A stretch of 64,000 nucleotides of DNA from an uncultured Planctomycetota bacterium (GCA_903847315.1 CAINDG010000038.1:67750-131749); one strand, 5' to 3'; positions 37,701-63,583 are shown, counted from the stretch's first letter. Made by a program: numbers and translations. The notes: a model not told the origin generated them from the sequence alone.

Positions 37701-38414
37701 ACCATCGGTAATTTTTTCATCGAGCTTTAAAGACCATTCAAACTGTTCTTTGAAAGTCTTGAGCTTATCGAGAATAATCTGCTTTTGACTTTTAACGGCA
37801 TCAGAAGAAACAGAAATTATCGCATCGTTCAAAATAACCGCTCTGTCGAACCAGTTTTGGCGTGATACGACAGAATCGAGGAAGTCGCTGATTTTAATAA
37901 TACAATTCAGGAAATTATTCTTTGGATTCGATATCGCCCTGTTCTGCAAAAGCTGCTGCATACCCTGCGGAAAATCGTCCCAGGCCTGTTCGATAACCTG
38001 CTGGAGAATTTCGGCTTTTATAAGTTTGCTTTCATCGCCGTCCATCACCCTGAAAGCGGGGTTGAGATTGAGACGATGAAAATGCTGAGCGATAACGCGT
38101 TTGCAGAATGAATGAATCGTGCTTATATCGGCGCCGTCGAGCATTAACAGCTGTTTGCGAAGATGAGCATTTTTCCCCTGCTGGGCAGAATCGCGCAGAT
38201 GCCGGGCTATACGCGTATTCATTTCGCCGGCGGCGGCATCTGTAAAAGTCAAAACGAGAATATCCGAAACGTCAGGACACAATTCCGGCATGCCGAGAAT
38301 CCTGACCGCCCGCTGAGACAGCACAGTGGTTTTGCCCGTGCCTGCGGAGGCGGCAACGGTTATATCGCCGCTTTGCGATTCGATTGCCTGCTTTTGTCCT
38401 TTAGTCCAGTTCAT
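34773..38414 (-). CDS. addA: ATP-dependent helicase/nuclease subunit A (UvrD-like helicase plus PD-(D/E)xK nuclease)
   Basis: 1213 aa. AASAGTGKTT, FVDEYQDINP and a C-terminal GIIDMLIKTPDGIVIIDFKTD. It overlaps addB by 4 nt. Confidence 0.9.
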   Translation of the reverse strand: MNWTKGQKQAIESQSGDITVAASAGTGKTTVLSQRAVRILGMPELCPDVSDILVLTFTDAAAGEMNTRIARHLRDSAQQGKNAHLRKQLLMLDGADISTIHSFCKRVIAQHFHRLNLNPAFRVMDGDESKLIKAEILQQVIEQAWDDFPQGMQQLLQNRAISNPKNNFLNCIIKISDFLDSVVSRQNWFDRAVILNDAIISVSSDAVKSQKQIILDKLKTFKEQFEWSLKLDEKITDGHWKHQIEGHCLPTVTLAIDFLQKDDLESFIEFLNSFDGFKWDNKPKGLEDGIKEFIQAAARKAIDGFKKLSELAILNPDYAGLIAGACSSQTKVLIELVKRFGLAYQQRKQQLSSVDFADLEQYMLRLLSENKDVDSGRPSDIALQLQKKYKYIFVDEYQDINPVQQRIIDLLSGLAKVFVVGDVKQSIYAWRGADCGLFVERLGKTEIDRSKSRVDLNENFRSRAGILNFVNEVFSRIMTASVAAVDYDENAALKPFNASADKVQKPDVELIIVDQDPAEQEQNDEKEDDSVSSEAINCRALTVARRIKELVEIEKFQVYDKTGNTYRPCRWSDIVILTRAFEQRANNYVQILRSANIPVVSDSSAGYFAATEINDMLSLLQVLDNPCQDIPLASVLRSPIFGLSDTELSQIKSHQKSQTDFYSLLQSVAEKADDENLQKKISDILRQLDDWRTLARRGSLADLIWQIYSQTDLLSFVSALPGGSQRRANLLKLHQRAIQFENFTSSFNIISLSRFVDFLQKLLESGGDWAPAEPDSSAANAVRIMSVHKSKGLEFPIVILAEASRKFQGGFNSTDCITDNQNTIGLKIIDENSGTKLSSLTWQVISQKQAGQNLAEEMRILYVAMTRAKDKLIVSGAAESKNCIRLLSNAALCDSEKLPDWLIEDAKSELDWILLSLAPYKKLNSHFELPVKITGKEDNLFDLKICRPDEISQLEKQFLKKHPVSRYETIKSPLPDKALLEGIAKNLSWRYQFEKAAGIKAKQSVTSLMQEEKQFAGADYSFSFESFEKLTDRTNSLVIGIATHLVIKNMDLTVPVDKNIISGTITDLFEKGYITKQAAEKINISSILKFFNSDLGKLLQSGSNTVMREWPFTYAASVAELYPDLKNCGDEKIIVQGIIDMLIKTPDGIVIIDFKTDHISSSQTQQKGEHYAPQLKWYCKAAGDILGAKNVSGWLYFLAPAVAVQVYPPFGSI

Positions 38415-41400
38415 TTGATTGTTTCAAAAAATTCCGTCTTTGAAATTTTCTTAACTTCCGCATAATCGTTTATCTGCCAGTCGAACCGGCAAAGCGATTT
38501 ATACGGACAATACGTACAGGCGATATTTTTTACATACCTGTAAGGTTTTACGTCAATTTCGCCTACAAGTATCCTGCCGCCAAGTTCTTTGAGCTTGTTT
38601 TCAGCAAAAGATAAAACTGCCGCAAAATGCTCGTCAGTCAAAAGCGAACTTGTTTCATAGGCGCTGAATTGCTTTTCCTTCTGTGTTATCCTGAAATTGT
38701 AAAAAGCGCTGTAGCCGGTTTGGATTTTGCCGTCGATAAGCTGGAAAAATTCGCCGTTGAAAATGCCTTTGGGTTTTCTTCTGATTTTTTCAGATTTTTT
38801 CTCAATTTCGCTCAAATCCGCCGAGTTCGGCGAGGTTTGAATCTGAAAATAAAACGCACTGAGAGGAATAAGATTTTTATATCCCAAAACAGTCAGATTT
38901 TTTACCGCGAGCAGATAAATTGGTAATTGCAAATCGAGACCTGCTGAAAACAGTGGCCAGTTAATTTTAGTTTCCGATGTTTTGTAATCGATAACCAGAC
39001 AATAGTTTGCGCCTGCTTTGGAAGCTATGTCGATTCTGTCGATTTTACCTTCGATGTGAAGTTTTTTGCCGTTTTCCAGTTTTATCTCAATGGCAGGCAA
39101 AGAATATTTGTCGCCAAAACCAATTTCAGATGCAATCTGAGAAAAACTTCCGGCAGAAGCAATCTGAGCAAATTCCAATACGGCGTTTTTGACCATCTGA
39201 GCGGCTGAAAGGATAATAAAACTGTTATGCTTCGTTCTCGCATTGAAACTTTTCAGAAACGAATCTTCAATAAGAAGTTTTTCAACTGCTCTGTCTGTAA
39301 GTCCTCCCAGCAAATCAGAGTCAGCATCGGAAAGACTGTGTTCTATGCTTTTGAGATTGTTAAATAATAATTCCAGAACTTTGTGAAAGAAAAGACCAAG
39401 ACTGAAAGGCTCCAATTCGAAAGTTTGTCTTTCCTCCAGCTCCAGGATATGTTTTGCGAAATACTGATATGGACAGCTTGCGAAAGACCTCAGCTTTGTT
39501 GCGCTGGCAGAAAGAATGTTCCTGACCGACAAATTATCAAGCCGGGCAATATTCTTATAATCTATCGCCGATTTAATCTTCCTTATATTGTCATTCCCGC
39601 AGGAATCAGAGCCGCGAATGTAAATGAGCGGTATTTCATCAATCAGCCATTTGCATCTGGCGTCCAAAGAATCGTCAGGCGATAAATTATCTCTGCCGAG
39701 ACGCGAGGCAAGCAGAGTAGTTAAATCGGAATTGCTTAAAATACTTTCAAAAGAATCGCTGCTTCCGAAATATTCTTTTTCCTGTAAGTCGTTGAATAAC
39801 GATTTTAACTGGCTGACAAGGAAACTGGGCTCAATCTTAGAACCTTTTTCGTTCCACATCGGATATGTAATATATAAATAATTGCTCGGACGCGTAAAAG
39901 CGATATAAGCAAGGTATCTGCGTTCGATAAGCTGCGATGAGCCTATGCGAGAAAGCTCAAATCCCGCATCTAAAGTAACTTTACGGTCGGCGTCGCTGAG
40001 AATATTGTCGTAATGAACCGGAATGGGAAACTGCTGCTGGGTTGCGCCGATGAGAAAAACCGCTTTCAGGTCGGGATGCCTGCTTCTTTCAATCGAGCCA
40101 ACAAGAACCTGGTCGAGTGCGGGCGGAATCAGGGCTACCGTCATATCGGAAAACGCGGAACTGATTATCGCGGCATACTGCTTTGCTGAAAATGAAGCGT
40201 TTTTGAAAATATAAGCGAAATCGTCCATCAACTGCGTAAACTGCGAGAAAAACTGCTGATGCAATTGCGCCTCATCGAGCCTGTTTGCCTCAAGTGCAGC
40301 TTTTGTCCAATCAGTCAATTGTCCTCTGACGTTCAGGCTATCGAGAAAATTAAAAAGTGCACTGCAAAATTTCTCGGCATCGATTGAACCGCTGCTTTGC
40401 AGCAAAGCCCTGAACTGCAAAAGATGTTCCGTCGCTTTGCGGCGGATTTTTTCTATTTGTTCATTATTGTAATCATCGTCAGGCGGCGCGAAATCCCATT
40501 CCTCGACGCCAAGCCAATCGTTTCCTTCAACTCCAAAGGCAAGGCAATAATTTTCAAGCTGGTCAACTTCATCCCGGCTTACAGGAACTAAATCGCTCTT
40601 TAGATAATTTATTACATCATTTGTAGTAAACCTGTCTGTCGCAATTTTCAGCGCACTTGTTATCAACTCAACTGCCGGGTATTGCTGAAGGTCTCGCCTG
40701 CGGTCGATAAAGAAAGGAATGCCGAAATCGCTGAATATCGCCTGTATGAAATGGCGATACTGGTCAATATCCGAAGCGATAACGGCTATATCGCGCCAGC
40801 GAAAACCTTTGTCCCTGACAAGGGAGCAAATCTGCCTGGCAACGTAATCGACTTCAAGCCTTGCCTTCGCACAGGCGGTAATTTTAATATTGTCCTGTGC
40901 TGAAACAGGCGGAATATCATCGAAACTGAAAATGTTTTTTTCAAGATGAGCCAGCGATTGTGAATTTTTGAAACGAGCCGGCTGGGTAAGGACAACAGGT
41001 TTTTCAACATTCAATTTTAACGACTTAATCAGGCCAAGAAGGTCGGCATAAGTTTTTGCCGTAGGCTCAAAGATGCCGGTATAGTCGTTCTCTGCTGCGG
41101 CGGGGTCAAGACACAGAGCAATTTTAGACGAAGCGGAAACTTTTAAAAGCTCCGTCAACAAAAGCATTTCAGAAGTAGTAAACCCCGCGAAACCATCGAC
41201 CCATAACAGGCAATTTTTGAGAAACGGCGTGCCGGCGACAGAATCTCTGGCAAGATTTAACTGGTTGTCGTTATTGAGGAAATTGCCTTCGACAAAGGCA
41301 AGATATTGTTTGTAAATCAGATTTATATCGGCAAGTTTGGAACAGGTCAGTTCCGAGGCGCCTGAACTTTTAAGATTTTCAAGAAGCCTGCCGACATCGT

Positions 41401-41815
41401 CAGGCGATTTGCCGAACTGCTGGAGCTCGGTTATGGCGTTCGCGACGCCGGCGGATGCAATGGAAGAAAAAATTGAAAGTTTTTCAGCATTTTCGCAAAG
41501 CAGTCTGTGAACAATCATATCCCTTGCCTGTGCGGTAAGCGGCCTCGCGGCAAGGTTCTTGCCGAAAATCAGATAACAGAGTCTTTGAAAAGACAGGATA
41601 TGTAATCGGCTGAAGCCTTTTATTCTCTTGTCCGAAAGGATTGCCCTTTCAGCCTGGTATGTCGCCTGCTCAGGAACAAGAAAGACAAGGTTTTGTTCAC
41701 TTTTATTTAGCCCCCAGCTCTGCCGGGGGTTCGCCTCAAGCAGACAATCGGTTATCTGCTTTATACAAAGCGTTGTCTTGCCAGTCCCGCTCCTGCCTAA
41801 TATAAATTGAACCAT
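38411..41815 (-). CDS. addB: ATP-dependent helicase/nuclease subunit B
   Basis: 1134 aa. GRSGTGKTT. C-terminal nuclease and Fe-S motifs CPYQYF, DRIDI..LVIDYKTS and CTYCPYKSLC. It contains an in-frame copy of the GC hairpin repeat (aa 27-39). Confidence 0.9.
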   Translation of the reverse strand: MVQFILGRSGTGKTTLCIKQITDCLLEANPRQSWGLNKSEQNLVFLVPEQATYQAERAILSDKRIKGFSRLHILSFQRLCYLIFGKNLAARPLTAQARDMIVHRLLCENAEKLSIFSSIASAGVANAITELQQFGKSPDDVGRLLENLKSSGASELTCSKLADINLIYKQYLAFVEGNFLNNDNQLNLARDSVAGTPFLKNCLLWVDGFAGFTTSEMLLLTELLKVSASSKIALCLDPAAAENDYTGIFEPTAKTYADLLGLIKSLKLNVEKPVVLTQPARFKNSQSLAHLEKNIFSFDDIPPVSAQDNIKITACAKARLEVDYVARQICSLVRDKGFRWRDIAVIASDIDQYRHFIQAIFSDFGIPFFIDRRRDLQQYPAVELITSALKIATDRFTTNDVINYLKSDLVPVSRDEVDQLENYCLAFGVEGNDWLGVEEWDFAPPDDDYNNEQIEKIRRKATEHLLQFRALLQSSGSIDAEKFCSALFNFLDSLNVRGQLTDWTKAALEANRLDEAQLHQQFFSQFTQLMDDFAYIFKNASFSAKQYAAIISSAFSDMTVALIPPALDQVLVGSIERSRHPDLKAVFLIGATQQQFPIPVHYDNILSDADRKVTLDAGFELSRIGSSQLIERRYLAYIAFTRPSNYLYITYPMWNEKGSKIEPSFLVSQLKSLFNDLQEKEYFGSSDSFESILSNSDLTTLLASRLGRDNLSPDDSLDARCKWLIDEIPLIYIRGSDSCGNDNIRKIKSAIDYKNIARLDNLSVRNILSASATKLRSFASCPYQYFAKHILELEERQTFELEPFSLGLFFHKVLELLFNNLKSIEHSLSDADSDLLGGLTDRAVEKLLIEDSFLKSFNARTKHNSFIILSAAQMVKNAVLEFAQIASAGSFSQIASEIGFGDKYSLPAIEIKLENGKKLHIEGKIDRIDIASKAGANYCLVIDYKTSETKINWPLFSAGLDLQLPIYLLAVKNLTVLGYKNLIPLSAFYFQIQTSPNSADLSEIEKKSEKIRRKPKGIFNGEFFQLIDGKIQTGYSAFYNFRITQKEKQFSAYETSSLLTDEHFAAVLSFAENKLKELGGRILVGEIDVKPYRYVKNIACTYCPYKSLCRFDWQINDYAEVKKISKTEFFETIK
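41706..41733. repeat. GC hairpin repeat, copy A (inside addB)
   Basis: TTTAGCCCCCAGctctgCCGGGGGTTCG. Confidence 0.9.
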
Positions 41816-43064: not shown

Positions 43065-43100
43065 ATAAAAAAGGGCGTTTGCCGTAAGGTAAACGCCCTT
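43065..43100 (-). terminator. Intrinsic terminator after gdhA
   Basis: Minus strand reads AAGGGCGTTT-accttacggc-AAACGCCCTT followed by TTTTATT. Confidence 0.8.
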
Positions 43101-43122
43101 CTAAACTTAAGATTTTTAATTT

Positions 43123-61083: not shown

Positions 61084-62244
61084 TTATACAACAAATTCGC
61101 CTTTTAACAACTCTTGTATAAGCCCCTCAATTTGCTGTTTTGTGTCCGCGGAAACAGCTTTTTCTAATATTTTTTTCTGCCTGTCTGTAAAACAGACGGT
61201 CTTTCTAATGTCGAAATCGACAACGCCGAGGGTTTGTTCTATTTCATCAATAAGTTCTTTTACTCCGCTGCCGGTTTTTGCGCTGATTTTCAAACCATCG
61301 ACAAGTAAATTATTCGCCAAATCACATTTGTTATAAACAACAAGTTTGTTTAGCCCCCGCACCTGTGGCGGGGGTTCGTTATCCCCGCGAAAACAGCAAT
61401 CCAGCACATACAATACCAAATCACAATTTTTTATTAATTCAATAGCTTGTTTCTGTGATTGTGCTTCAACTATATTTTTTTCACTTAACGTCTCATCGAG
61501 ACCGGCCGTATCGAAAAATTCCGCTTGTATTCTTTTCAATCGGATTTTCGCACTGAGCCAGTCCCGCGTTGTGCCTGCGATATCCGTTACAATCGCTTTT
61601 TCTTTTCCGCAAAGACGATTAAACAATGTGCTTTTGCCGCTGTTGGGCGGGCCCGCAATGACAATCTTTGCGCCATTAATAAAAAAGTTAGAAATCTTAC
61701 TATCGCTCAAAACCTGCTCTGCGCCTGCTTTAATATCGTCAATCTGCATTGTGTTAATATTTTTCAGCCACCACTGGCAGCTCTGCAAAAGACCCATCTT
61801 CGTCTGATGACGGATTATCTTCGCTCCGTAAATTGTCGCAGCTTTTGTTTCCGCGATATCAGCCTCTATCGCAATTGTGTTATCGCCGTGTTTCTGCCTG
61901 CCCAAGTATGTTAGAATTTCCTGCGGCTCTGCAATCTCTGCCCCCTGCTTTTTCAGCAGTTCAAGAATATTTTCAACAATAATCGGATTGCCATGACAGT
62001 TTATACTGAAACAATCTGCCTGTTCACAGCCGATTATCACCTCGTCAATCGGAGTATTGCCGTCAAAGATATTGCCGTGAAGAATTGAACCGATTGAAAA
62101 AACTGGAGGTTTGTCGCTTAATGGTTTAAAAATTTTCTTTAAAATATTCTCGCAATCAGTCCCAACAAGCTGAATGCTCGATATCGCACTGGCGGCTTTT
62201 GCCGTCATCAGAGCCGCTATACATTTATGTTTTTTCGCCGACAT
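61084..62244 (-). CDS. MnmE/TrmE-like GTPase (divergent, lacks the C-terminal CIGK motif)
   Basis: GPPNSGKSTLFNRL, DTAGL and NKCDL form the G domain. The N-domain resembles MnmE (CIAALMT..ISSIQLVG; IDEVII..INCHGNPIIVENILELL). I moved the start to the ATG at 62244. The track start at 62394 would overlap coaX by 170 nt. It contains hairpin repeat copy B in frame. Confidence 0.65.
   Translation of the reverse strand: MSAKKHKCIAALMTAKAASAISSIQLVGTDCENILKKIFKPLSDKPPVFSIGSILHGNIFDGNTPIDEVIIGCEQADCFSINCHGNPIIVENILELLKKQGAEIAEPQEILTYLGRQKHGDNTIAIEADIAETKAATIYGAKIIRHQTKMGLLQSCQWWLKNINTMQIDDIKAGAEQVLSDSKISNFFINGAKIVIAGPPNSGKSTLFNRLCGKEKAIVTDIAGTTRDWLSAKIRLKRIQAEFFDTAGLDETLSEKNIVEAQSQKQAIELIKNCDLVLYVLDCCFRGDNEPPPQVRGLNKLVVYNKCDLANNLLVDGLKISAKTGSGVKELIDEIEQTLGVVDFDIRKTVCFTDRQKKILEKAVSADTKQQIEGLIQELLKGEFVV
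61349..61378. repeat. GC hairpin repeat, copy B (inside the mnmE-like gene)
   Basis: TTTAGCCCCCGCacctgtgGCGGGGGTTCG, with a 7-bp stem. Confidence 0.9.
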
Positions 62245-63022
62245 ATTTCTTATACGCAAGGACAATTCCTTTGACCACAAGGTTATCGACAAATGAATCT
62301 GCAAAATCGCATCCGCTCCTGATAATTTCCATATTTCCGCCGGTAACAACCGTCTGCGGCCATTTGCCCAGATGCTCCGAATAGAGCCTTCCAATTATTT
62401 CAAGAGCGCCTATCGCGGAATAATACAAGCCGTTATTAATTGCCTCGGCGGTATTTTTGCCGAATGGTTTTTTCGGAATTTTGACTTTGCCGATTTTAGG
62501 CAGTCCTGCCGTGTACCTGTTCAGCGCCTCAGCCGATATATCGAAGCCCGGCATAATAGTGCCGCCCAGAAAAACGCCTTTGTCATCGACAACATCAATC
62601 GTTACCGCTGTGCCGAAATCGGCGACAATAACCGCATCTTCGACAACGCTGTACGCCGTAAATGCCGCCAGAATCCTGTCAACGCCAATCTGCCCCGGCC
62701 CGTCAACGTCAAGCTCCATCGGCAGCGGTACATCTTTGCCGAATCCTATCTCAAGAATTTTTTCGCCCAATTGTTCCTGTACAATTTTTTTTACTGTATC
62801 CATCCAGTCGGGTTTTACGCTTGCGATAACAATTACGCCGTCGCGTTTTGTCTTATCTCTGCTGGCTTTCGCCAATGGAATCCTGTCCCAGTAGTTTTTC
62901 AAAACCGCGGCAATTTCTTCTGGCTTATCGCCCTTGGTCTTTTCAATCGTCGCTTCCGCGTCACCGATAAAAAGCCCCGCCGTTATATTCGTATTACCTA
63001 TATCTATCGCGATAATGTTCAT
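62225..63022 (-). CDS. coaX: Type III pantothenate kinase
   Basis: 265 aa. MNIIAIDIGNTNITAGLF and the GVDR..DFGTAVT pattern. Confidence 0.9.
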   Translation of the reverse strand: MNIIAIDIGNTNITAGLFIGDAEATIEKTKGDKPEEIAAVLKNYWDRIPLAKASRDKTKRDGVIVIASVKPDWMDTVKKIVQEQLGEKILEIGFGKDVPLPMELDVDGPGQIGVDRILAAFTAYSVVEDAVIVADFGTAVTIDVVDDKGVFLGGTIMPGFDISAEALNRYTAGLPKIGKVKIPKKPFGKNTAEAINNGLYYSAIGALEIIGRLYSEHLGKWPQTVVTGGNMEIIRSGCDFADSFVDNLVVKGIVLAYKKYVGEKT

Positions 63023-63132
63023 CCCGCACCTTCTTTTTATTCAATTTTATTTAAACCTGTTATAATTCTATTATTTTTTCGATTAATTAAAAAATATACG
63101 CAATATATCGAATATTTAGAAGGTGCGGGATT
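63021..63132. repeat. 112-bp element with perfect 13-bp terminal inverted repeats, copy 2 (inverted relative to copy 1), upstream of coaX
   Basis: ATCCCGCACCTTC (63021-63033) and GAAGGTGCGGGAT (63120-63132) flank an 86-nt AT-rich core. The left arm overlaps 2 nt of the coaX ATG. Confidence 0.9.
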
Positions 63133-63198
63133 CATTCCGTCCCTTTCTAATGCCGGAAGCTTATCGGAAAACAGATAAATAATCAATCACAAAAGAAA

Positions 63199-63294
63199 CA
63201 GAGCCGCGACCGTAAGCGAGCGGTATGTTTTCGCGTTTTATTTAGCCCCCGGTTTTACCGGGGGTTCAGAGCCGCGACAGTTATGGAGCGGTAT
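63199..63294. repeat. Composite repeat: 28-nt direct repeats flanking GC hairpin repeat copy C
   Basis: CAGAGCCGCGACCGTAAGCGAGCGGTAT (63199-63226) and CAGAGCCGCGACAGTTATGGAGCGGTAT (63267-63294) are 24/28 identical. Between them lies TTTAGCCCCCGGttttaCCGGGGGTTCA (63241-63268). Confidence 0.9.
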
Positions 63295-63583
63295 TTTAAT
63301 ATTGTTTAGCCGTCGCCGGCACGGCGATGTCGTTTGCCCCGTGAGATGCCGTTTCGGCTATCTCATCGGGGTCATTGCGAGGCTTGCCCGCCGTAGGCGT
63401 GGCCGAAGCCGAAGCAATCTCAGTTAAGGCCATTCCCTTATATCGCAGTTTTGACACATAATATATGTTATGGGACAAGCATCGGAAATCCCATTTCGTC
63501 ATTTCGAGCGGAGGTCCTTTATGGCCGGAGTCGAGAAATCTCTGAAATTTCAAATCTTAAATTCGTCCCTCCTGCTCTACTGT

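Follow-up and report, generated by a model that had tools for sequence, protein, structure and literature searches.

Repetitive extragenic palindromic (REP) sequences are imperfect palindromes of 20-40 nt, with an unpaired 5' tag ending in TAG and with covarying stems that define subfamilies. Most lie outside genes, frequently clustered or as inverted pairs, and occasional copies are in frame within genes, notably repair genes. In REP/RAYT systems (REPtrons/REPINs), the small HUH/Y1 transposase gene of the REP-associated tyrosine transposase (RAYT) is bracketed by inverted copies, and the TAG of the tag supplies stop codons. For more than 80 species, among them the planctomycete R. baltica, Di Nocera et al. 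(2013) reported GTAG- and CGTC-tagged REPs, along with REP dimers, clusters, REPtrons and TAG tags as stop codons, and they already described REPs within genes, many of them repair genes including recB, uvrA and dnaE2 (PMC3733652). Other related systems are the Rickettsia palindromic elements (RPEs), which are selfish palindromic repeats persisting in frame in essential genes as loop insertions, and the IS200/IS605 insertion sequences (IS608, ISDra2 and miniature derivatives), in which a Y1 HUH transposase recognises hairpins on single strands. The present analysis concerns a stretch of 64,000 nt from an uncultured Planctomycetota bacterium (GCA_903847315.1, CAINDG010000038.1:67750-131749; the whole stretch is referred to as the window) and a GC-rich hairpin repeat, here called element A, one copy of which lies within the addB gene. 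Element A shares the REP/RAYT features listed above, and in our judgement it is very probably the REP-type unit of a REP/RAYT system widespread in Planctomycetota, with the addB copy as an in-frame insertion.

The pattern TTTAGCCCCC-N(5-14)-GGGGGTTC was matched three times in the window, at 41706-41732, 61349-61377 and 63241-63267, in each case on the + strand and with a spacer of N9-11. No match was obtained in any of 100 dinucleotide-preserving shuffles (expected by chance, 0). The three copies were the only CCCCC..GGGGG pairs in the window, as the preliminary description of this DNA had stated. Copy 1 (core as matched, 41706-41732) is located in addB. Copy 2 (61349-61377), of the inner subtype GCACCTGTGGC, is located in the G3-G4 loop of an MnmE-like GTPase, where it encodes NEPPPQVRGLN, and copy 3 (63241-63267) is intergenic, upstream of coaX. 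When folded as DNA, copy 1 was the weakest hairpin of the three, with an A.C mismatch and an energy of -5.6 kcal/mol (z = -0.87), compared with -9.4 kcal/mol for copy 2 and -10.3 kcal/mol for copy 3, which has a perfect 8-bp stem. The cumulative GC skew of the window climbs to about 36 kb and then drops (peak near 32-36 kb), the main coding strand switching there; all three copies are on the + strand of the negative-skew half.

The addB gene (38411-41815, minus strand) encodes a protein of 1134 aa with ADDB_N, UvrD_C and PDDEXK_1 domains, the homologues of which place the host organism in the Phycisphaerae/Sedimentisphaerales of the Planctomycetota. In an alignment of the N-termini of 102 AddB homologues, nine to ten residues, EANPRQSWGL, were present in the window protein and missing from practically all others, between the helix after the Walker A motif and the strand LVFLVPEQ; the length of this loop is somewhat variable among orthologues. 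The closest homologue (P0001, locus L001, 77% identical) has the empty site TGT CTG CTA AAT AAA, compared with TGT CTG CT[T GAG GCG AAC CCC CGG CAG AGC TGG GGG CT]A AAT AAA in the window, a difference of exactly 30 bases. These 30 nt, CCCCCAGCTCTGCCGGGGGTTCGCCTCAAG (41711-41740, + strand), consist of the hairpin and a tail and encode (E)ANPRQSWGL on the minus strand; their boundary has a 2-nt ambiguity, since AG flanks both ends. They are preceded by an 8-nt 5' tag, TTATTTAG (41703-41710, + strand), for which the family consensus is W-T-R-TTTAG in a profile of 126 copies (see below). The tag is already present in the empty site of L001, where TTATTTAG is followed directly by CAGAC, and in the window the 30 nt stand between the two, which makes one clean empty/filled pair and the tag a candidate for the target or cleavage motif. 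The addB segment is a lineage-specific insertion of element A, as had been suspected: about 100 orthologues are without it.

In a third lineage (P0002, locus L002, 73% identical), a different member of the hairpin family, with the stem CCCCCAAC/GTTGGGGG, was found at the same place in addB, and its inner sequence AACTTTATGTT exactly matches a subtype that occurs in an unrelated genome (L083). The window AddB, P0001 and P0002 are roughly equidistant from one another, and as different subtypes of element A occupy one site in about equidistant lineages, at least two events must have occurred at this site. At least six contigs from several ENA assemblies encode an AddB identical to that of the window, with the insert; as these contigs are independent, the insert is not an assembly artefact.

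Alignment with B. subtilis AddB (3U44 chain B) placed the insert in the loop between RRA and KPIIFLVPDQ. An AlphaFold2 model of AddB residues 1-300 had a mean predicted local distance difference test score (pLDDT) of 89.4, with a dip to 55 only at residues 31-40, between helix 13-27 and strand 43-46. Together, the alignment and the model locate the insert in the loop that joins the P-loop helix to strand 2 in the N-terminal domain of AddB, in agreement with the preliminary description, which had placed a loop insertion after the Walker A helix and before LVPEQ. The minus-strand peptides read at that time, ...CLLEANPRQSWGLNKSEQNLVFLVPEQ in AddB and ...FRGDNEPPPQVRGLNKLVVYNKCDL in the MnmE-like protein, were correct. 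The additional statement that the element is in the same frame in both genes held for the 3' arm (GG GGG CTA AAx, encoding G-L-N) but not for the 5' arm (AAC CCC CGG compared with GAA CCC CCG), because the mnmE copy has 2 additional nt in its inner part. A common frame was rejected as a meaningful regularity, since all four stop-free frames are used across the element A family, and the choice of frame therefore reflects filtering by selection and not a property of the element.

When each bacterial and archaeal species was represented by one genome, an exact-pattern scan gave at least 117 loci, 111 of which carry Planctomycetota titles. The lineages represented were Pirellulales, Planctomycetaceae, Isosphaeraceae, Sedimentisphaerales, Phycisphaerales and Anaerohalosphaeraceae. 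Six loci were without a Planctomycetota title: L099, probably a chance match with an inner part that is not palindromic, L007, L108, L109 and L112, which are short contigs and may be mis-binned, and L119, titled 'uncultured bacterium'. Profiles and gene context were determined for 126 copies, among the matches listed. These contained 71 different inner sequences, 56 of which had at least three further consecutive pairs beyond the C5/G5 stem, compared with 7.8% of shuffles, and all four Watson-Crick pair types occurred at each inner stem position. As the inner stem pairs covary and pairing is far above that of the shuffles, the hairpin itself must be under selection. Discrete inner subtypes (AGTTTTACT, GGTTTTACC, CAATTTATTG and GCACCTGTGGC) are shared by distant genomes. 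Conservation reaches three bases upstream of the TTTAG (W-T-R-TTTAG) and ends directly after GGGGGTTC. Element A is made up of the unpaired 5' tag W-T-R-TTTAG, five C:G pairs followed by three or four freely covarying pairs, a loop of 3-7 nt and a TTC tail.

The family avoids genes. Among the 126 copies, 86 were intergenic, 21 were at the edges of open reading frames (ORFs) and 19 (15%) were inside ORFs, whereas 77% of random positions fell in ORFs. The family thus has many further copies, mostly intergenic with a minority in frame inside real genes, which answers the check on coding and intergenic copies that the preliminary description had proposed. Many copies are adjoined by inverted partial partners (GGGGCTAAATA|TTTAGCCCC). 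The density of element A, in the window and in loci picked via their proteins, was approximately 0.047 per kb, compared with 0.0013 per kb by chance (approximately 35-fold), which by extrapolation would correspond to a few hundred copies per genome. In-frame copies in Pfam-supported genes of relatives were found in Mfd (L068), glutamate synthase GltB (L022), YidC (L041), TilS (L013) and 2-oxoacid dehydrogenase E2 (L101), and further in-frame hosts included a MacB-like permease, a multihaem cytochrome and a glycosyltransferase. In-frame copies are also present in L030, L114 and L034. The intragenic copies lie mostly between domains, in linkers, and the host genes are functionally unrelated. Mfd is another DNA-repair protein with a copy of element A. 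In the GltB of L022, there is seemingly a second hairpin-derived peptide (ERYLAPQSFGAAQ) a few residues past the first.

Other assignments were also considered. Rfam searches, with gathering thresholds on the whole window and by E-value on 63100-63450, gave chance-level matches only. A reading of GGGGGTTCG as the remnant of a tRNA T-arm was ruled out, as a tRNA/tmRNA scan found nothing, and a terminator reading of element A was rejected because neither strand has a conserved T-run following the hairpin and some copies are inside genes. When the window was searched more generally for hairpins with a TTAG tag, five were found, compared with 0-3 in controls, with no convincing further copies beyond chance. 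Literature searches with sequence strings, and for RAYT together with Planctomycetes, found no description of a TTAG-tagged family.

A scan of the fetched loci for an HUH...Y motif identified two ORFs of approximately 150 aa abutting a copy of element A. When both were used in tblastn, homologues were found in eight of the at least 117 loci of the pattern scan (L071, L067, L084, L008, L010, L079, L069 and L012), always within 130 nt of a copy; together with L205, this gives nine loci with the gene, here termed rayT. In eight RayT proteins, the H-x-H and the Y of an RIxY(V/I) motif near the C-terminus were invariant. All eight matched Pfam Y1_Tnp (best E 1e-8) and the NCBIfam model 'REP-associated tyrosine transposase' (best E 2e-7), and a profile built from them found the IS200-type TnpA structures 2F4F, 2EC2 and 2XM3. 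In the protein collection, the family numbers more than 6000, and many of its members were named 'REP element-mobilizing transposase RayT' by the Joint Genome Institute (JGI), and the NCBI organism names among the top 120 matches were all of Planctomycetota lineages.

In most of the nine loci, rayT is bracketed by copies of element A, with some brackets in the same orientation or in tandem. The clearest layout (L205 and L067) is GAACCCCC..GGGGGCTAAA, approximately 10 nt, rayT and then TTTAGCCCCC..GGGGGTTC, so that the copies are in inverted orientation and the tag of each points towards rayT, and in both loci rayT takes its stop codon from the TAG of the tag. In L069 (6700-6860), at least three copies repeated in tandem every 35 nt (GTTCGTTG-TTTAGCCCCCACTTTTAGTGGGGGTTC) lie just upstream of rayT. 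The genes trxB and trxA come after rayT in L205 (1927-4980), L084, L067 and L071, and rmuC lies before it in L205 and L084, an arrangement suggesting that rayT is a vertically inherited, single-copy, domesticated gene; this would account for the wide conservation of the hairpin core.

Element A has a core stem-loop of 27-29 nt with compensatory changes, is dispersed and mainly extragenic, and in the nine related loci its copies flank a RAYT gene, as in described REP/RAYT systems. It differs from the GTAG superfamily in its tag, which is (T/G)TTAG, extended to W-T-R-TTTAG: the accepted variants of the GTAG tag are GYAG, GYRG, GTRG, GTMG and GTGG, and in all copies of element A the stem is preceded by TTAG, of which the first base is T. 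Its 18 core bases are also conserved over two classes of the phylum, and not over a genus or family, and the REPs of R. baltica (GTAG-20/21, PMC3733652) encode other peptides. Element A is therefore analogous to the GTAG-tagged REP superfamily and is not filed in it. In the preliminary description, it had been called an RPE-like selfish or structural hairpin. The analogy was apt, as element A is a selfish palindrome that lies in frame and stop-free in intact conserved genes, but membership did not hold. RPE-1 measures 100-150 bp, is restricted to Rickettsia, has no dedicated transposase known and shows no sequence relation to element A, which is a REP of 27-30 nt, found across the Planctomycetota, with a RayT-type HUH transposase. 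The IS200/IS605 elements have two different subterminal hairpins plus genes, whereas in element A a single hairpin is the whole unit; the fixed trxB/trxA neighbourhood of rayT in four loci also points to vertical inheritance, and not to hopping with its own ends.

Copy 2 is located in a gene for an MnmE-like GTPase (61084-62244, minus strand; ORF 61084-62394, with a probable start at 62244), whose orthologues have TrmE_N, MMR_HSR1 and MnmE_helical domains. The G3-G4 loop, from DLVLYVLD to NKCDL, was highly variable in 120 orthologues, many of which encode hairpin-derived peptides there, and these were confirmed at the DNA level in six. Family A is read in this loop in three frames (PPPQVRGLN, PRQSVGGAN and EPPAKPGAK) and is present as a dimer in P0131, a GTTAG-tagged variant encodes NPAIVMAGLTE or NPAKVLAGLTE, and another hairpin family, C (see below), encodes FRGNDNI. 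In the window, copy 2 adjoins the degenerate family-C (CGTC-type) remnant GTTATCCCCGCGAAAACAGCAATCC (61378-61402, + strand), encoding ..CCFRGD; at the same site, L121 and L122 have the intact GTCATTCCCGCGCAGGCGGGAATCC. An identical A copy is found at the same place in the window and in L121 (P0108), followed by the family C hairpin, intact in L121 and decayed in the window. In L120, family C is present and the A copy is absent, and compared with L120 the window has 6 nt exchanged and a net gain of 18 nt. As another repeat already occupied the loop, the mnmE copy did not enter naive sequence as a clean insertion. Conservation of this copy beyond its surroundings was set aside as weak evidence: the 35 nt around it are identical between the window and L121, in genes which are 76% identical overall, but 24 of the 1136 29-nt windows in this comparison were likewise perfect. 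The loop (61340-61405; orthologues P0107-P0226, loci L120-L124) is a recurrent insertion hot spot, with differing hairpin families, frames and even dimers at this one position in dozens of MnmE-like orthologues.

A second insertion is present in addB (39590-39634, + strand), composed of a degenerate family-C hairpin, GTCATTCCCGCAGGAATC (39590-39607), and a hairpin of a further family, B, AGAGCCGCGAATGTAAATGAGCGGTAT (39608-39634). It encodes IPLIYIRGSDSCGND, and the nearest AddB relatives (L125, L127, L128 and L129) are shorter by approximately 10 residues there, while the AddB of L126 has an intact family-C hairpin at this site. Family B has the consensus CAGAG-CCGC-GA-NN-GTAA-NN-GA-GCGG-TAT, with a GNRA-like loop, two G/A mismatches and covarying NN pairs. 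It often adjoins an A copy on the 3' side, as in L028, L093 and L098; family B also occurs in L039, L069, L074 and L122, and no assignment of family B to a known family was found. In L125, L127 and L129, the empty addB site already contains GCGGTAT, which forms part of the 3' end of family B. Intact copies of family C, (T/C)GTC-ATTCCCGC-GNRA-GCGGGAAT-CCA with GAAA, GCAG or GCAA loops, occur in L014, L020, L028, L031, L039, L052, L055, L087, L096, L110, L112, L121, L122 and L126, and within genes they encode (F/L/C)RGND; the two copies in the window (39590-39607 and 61378-61402) are degenerate. Family C fits the description of CGTC-tagged REPs, with a CGTC/TGTC tag, a stem of 8-9 bp opening with A-T and T-A pairs, a loop of 4-5 nt and a CCA tail. 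The CGTC-tagged superfamily includes Rickettsia RPE-4 and RPE-6 (PMC3733652), the type of which is matched by the family-C part of the second addB insertion. This superfamily is also that of Neisseria dRS3.

Copy 3 is part of a cluster of five or six hairpin modules upstream of coaX (63116-63370), resembling a bacterial interspersed mosaic element (BIME). The modules are, in order, a TTTAG-tagged imperfect hairpin, the family-B hairpin AGAGCCGCGACCGTAAGCGAGCGGTAT (63200-63226, + strand), copy 3 itself 14 nt further on, the family-B hairpin AGAGCCGCGACAGTTATGGAGCGGTAT (63268-63294, + strand), which abuts copy 3, the TTTAG-tagged variant hairpin TTTAGCCGTCGCCGGCACGGCGATGTCG (63305-63332, + strand), which is also found after element A in L036 and L039, and an inverted repeat (63337-63370). 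Elsewhere in the window, short direct repeats unrelated to the hairpin families are present at 1374-1576: AGTGAAAAGTGAA(G/T)AGTGAA.. at 1374 and 1438, and ATAACT..TTTACGTTGT.GGAAATG.TAT at 1472 and 1543. At 43071-43104 (minus strand), downstream of the gene for glutamate dehydrogenase, a GC-rich 12-bp hairpin with TTTTTT after it looks like an ordinary intrinsic terminator which is preceded by TTTAG by chance.

The insertion in addB may be pictured as follows. The element A hairpin would form on single-stranded DNA, and RayT would recognise the hairpin with its tag and cut beside the tag, by analogy with IS200/IS605 TnpA and E. coli RAYT (PMC6006769, PMC3733652). RayT would then join the hairpin 3' of a matching tag elsewhere, in the fashion of IS200/IS605. 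In addB, a 30-nt copy would have landed 3' of a pre-existing TTATTTAG, which corresponds to the L-N-K codons on the other strand, in the loop after the P-loop helix. The insert could survive as 10 residues because its length is a multiple of three, it is stop-free in frame and the loop is tolerant, and its hairpin would have been decaying since then. The addB hairpin being the weakest of the three fits a passenger under protein-level constraint, which is expected to decay, and the insert would be functionally neutral.

In IS200/IS605, insertion takes place 3' of a specific 4-5-nt target which lies outside the element and is retained on excision, and the tag at the empty addB site suggests the same behaviour. 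The probability of a complete 8-nt tag at a given position by chance is approximately 6e-5, with degenerate positions allowed for. As a lead, the tag in the empty site fits insertion 3' of a pre-existing tag, and equally a precise excision in the P0001 lineage. Tentatively, and with more doubt than confidence, the 8-nt tag might be seen as the target and not as a part of the mobile unit, with only the hairpin and tail moving and being joined 3' of a pre-existing W-T-R-TTTAG. If so, loops whose codons spell the tag, such as Leu-Asn-Lys (CTA AAT AAA), would be recurrent landing sites, and the different REP subtypes in the same AddB and MnmE loops across lineages would be accounted for. This would also constitute natural empty/filled-site evidence on the spread of RAYT-associated REPs.

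Several points weigh against the REP/RAYT interpretation or against the tag as its target. We know of no system in which transposition of a REP by a RAYT has been shown in vivo. Neither a motif search nor tblastn found rayT in the 64-kb window, the association with rayT being that of relatives, and most RayT members were below the curated cut-offs of Pfam and NCBIfam, though their matches were significant. The tag of element A is TTAG, and not the GTAG that defines classical RAYT-associated REPs. The tag as target rests on the one clean empty/filled pair of L001 and the window, and the mnmE pair is not clean in this respect, as the empty orthologue has TTTATTTTG plus 6 other bases.

We consider it unlikely that the hairpins spread without RayT, through gene conversion, through template switching seeded by short homology (the tag) or by means of another enzyme, with RayT as a mere neighbour that uses the same hairpins. 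Such homology-primed copying predicts that parts of the conserved ends are already present at empty sites, as was observed for A (TTATTTAG) and B (GCGGTAT), but for the tag this is equally predicted by targeting of the IS200/IS605 type. The different A subtypes at the same site in two addB lineages, and the lack of a dedicated transposase for CGTC-type REPs (PMC3733652), are also in favour of a spread without RayT. The tight and repeated link of rayT with inverted A copies over two classes is, however, the signature of REP/RAYT systems.

A much less probable explanation is that the hairpin has been retained in addB because it serves a purpose there, as an mRNA or DNA structure which tunes AddB expression or marks the locus. 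The excess of REPs in replication and repair genes noted by Di Nocera et al. (PMC3733652) and the copy in mfd (L068) would fit such a role, but the intragenic copies lie in linkers of functionally unrelated genes. The 35-nt identity of the mnmE copy between orthologues, within a loop that is otherwise highly variable, could be cited in its support, but perfect 29-nt windows occur elsewhere in the same comparison. The addB copy is, moreover, the most degraded of the three, and the closest AddB orthologue is without the hairpin. Ancestral coding sequence, chance similarity and faulty assembly are all refuted as origins of the segment, as beyond some variation in loop length nothing favours them, no copies were expected by chance, the roughly 100 orthologues, the 30-nt empty site and the identical protein on at least six contigs contradict them, and the same nucleotide unit recurs in many unrelated contexts.

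In-frame insertion of REPs into genes is a known phenomenon; new here are the cases in AddB and the MnmE-like protein and the family itself, with its TTAG tag, a core shared across the phylum and its RayT. Element A as a REP-type unit accounts for the odd insert of 10 residues in a nuclease that is conserved and acts in recombination repair. It is also a warning for annotation, as short loop insertions in planctomycete AddB, MnmE-like GTPase, Mfd, GltB, YidC and TilS can be footprints of REPs and not adaptive. The addB site, with different subtypes in two lineages and empty in a third, and the MnmE-like loop together form a natural data set on REP insertion and loss, in which the tag at the empty site and the recurrent occupation of the same protein loops are worth following. 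A REP/RAYT pair with a phylum-wide hairpin core and with rayT in a fixed neighbourhood agrees with the notion that RAYTs reside in their genomes over the long term and are passed on vertically.

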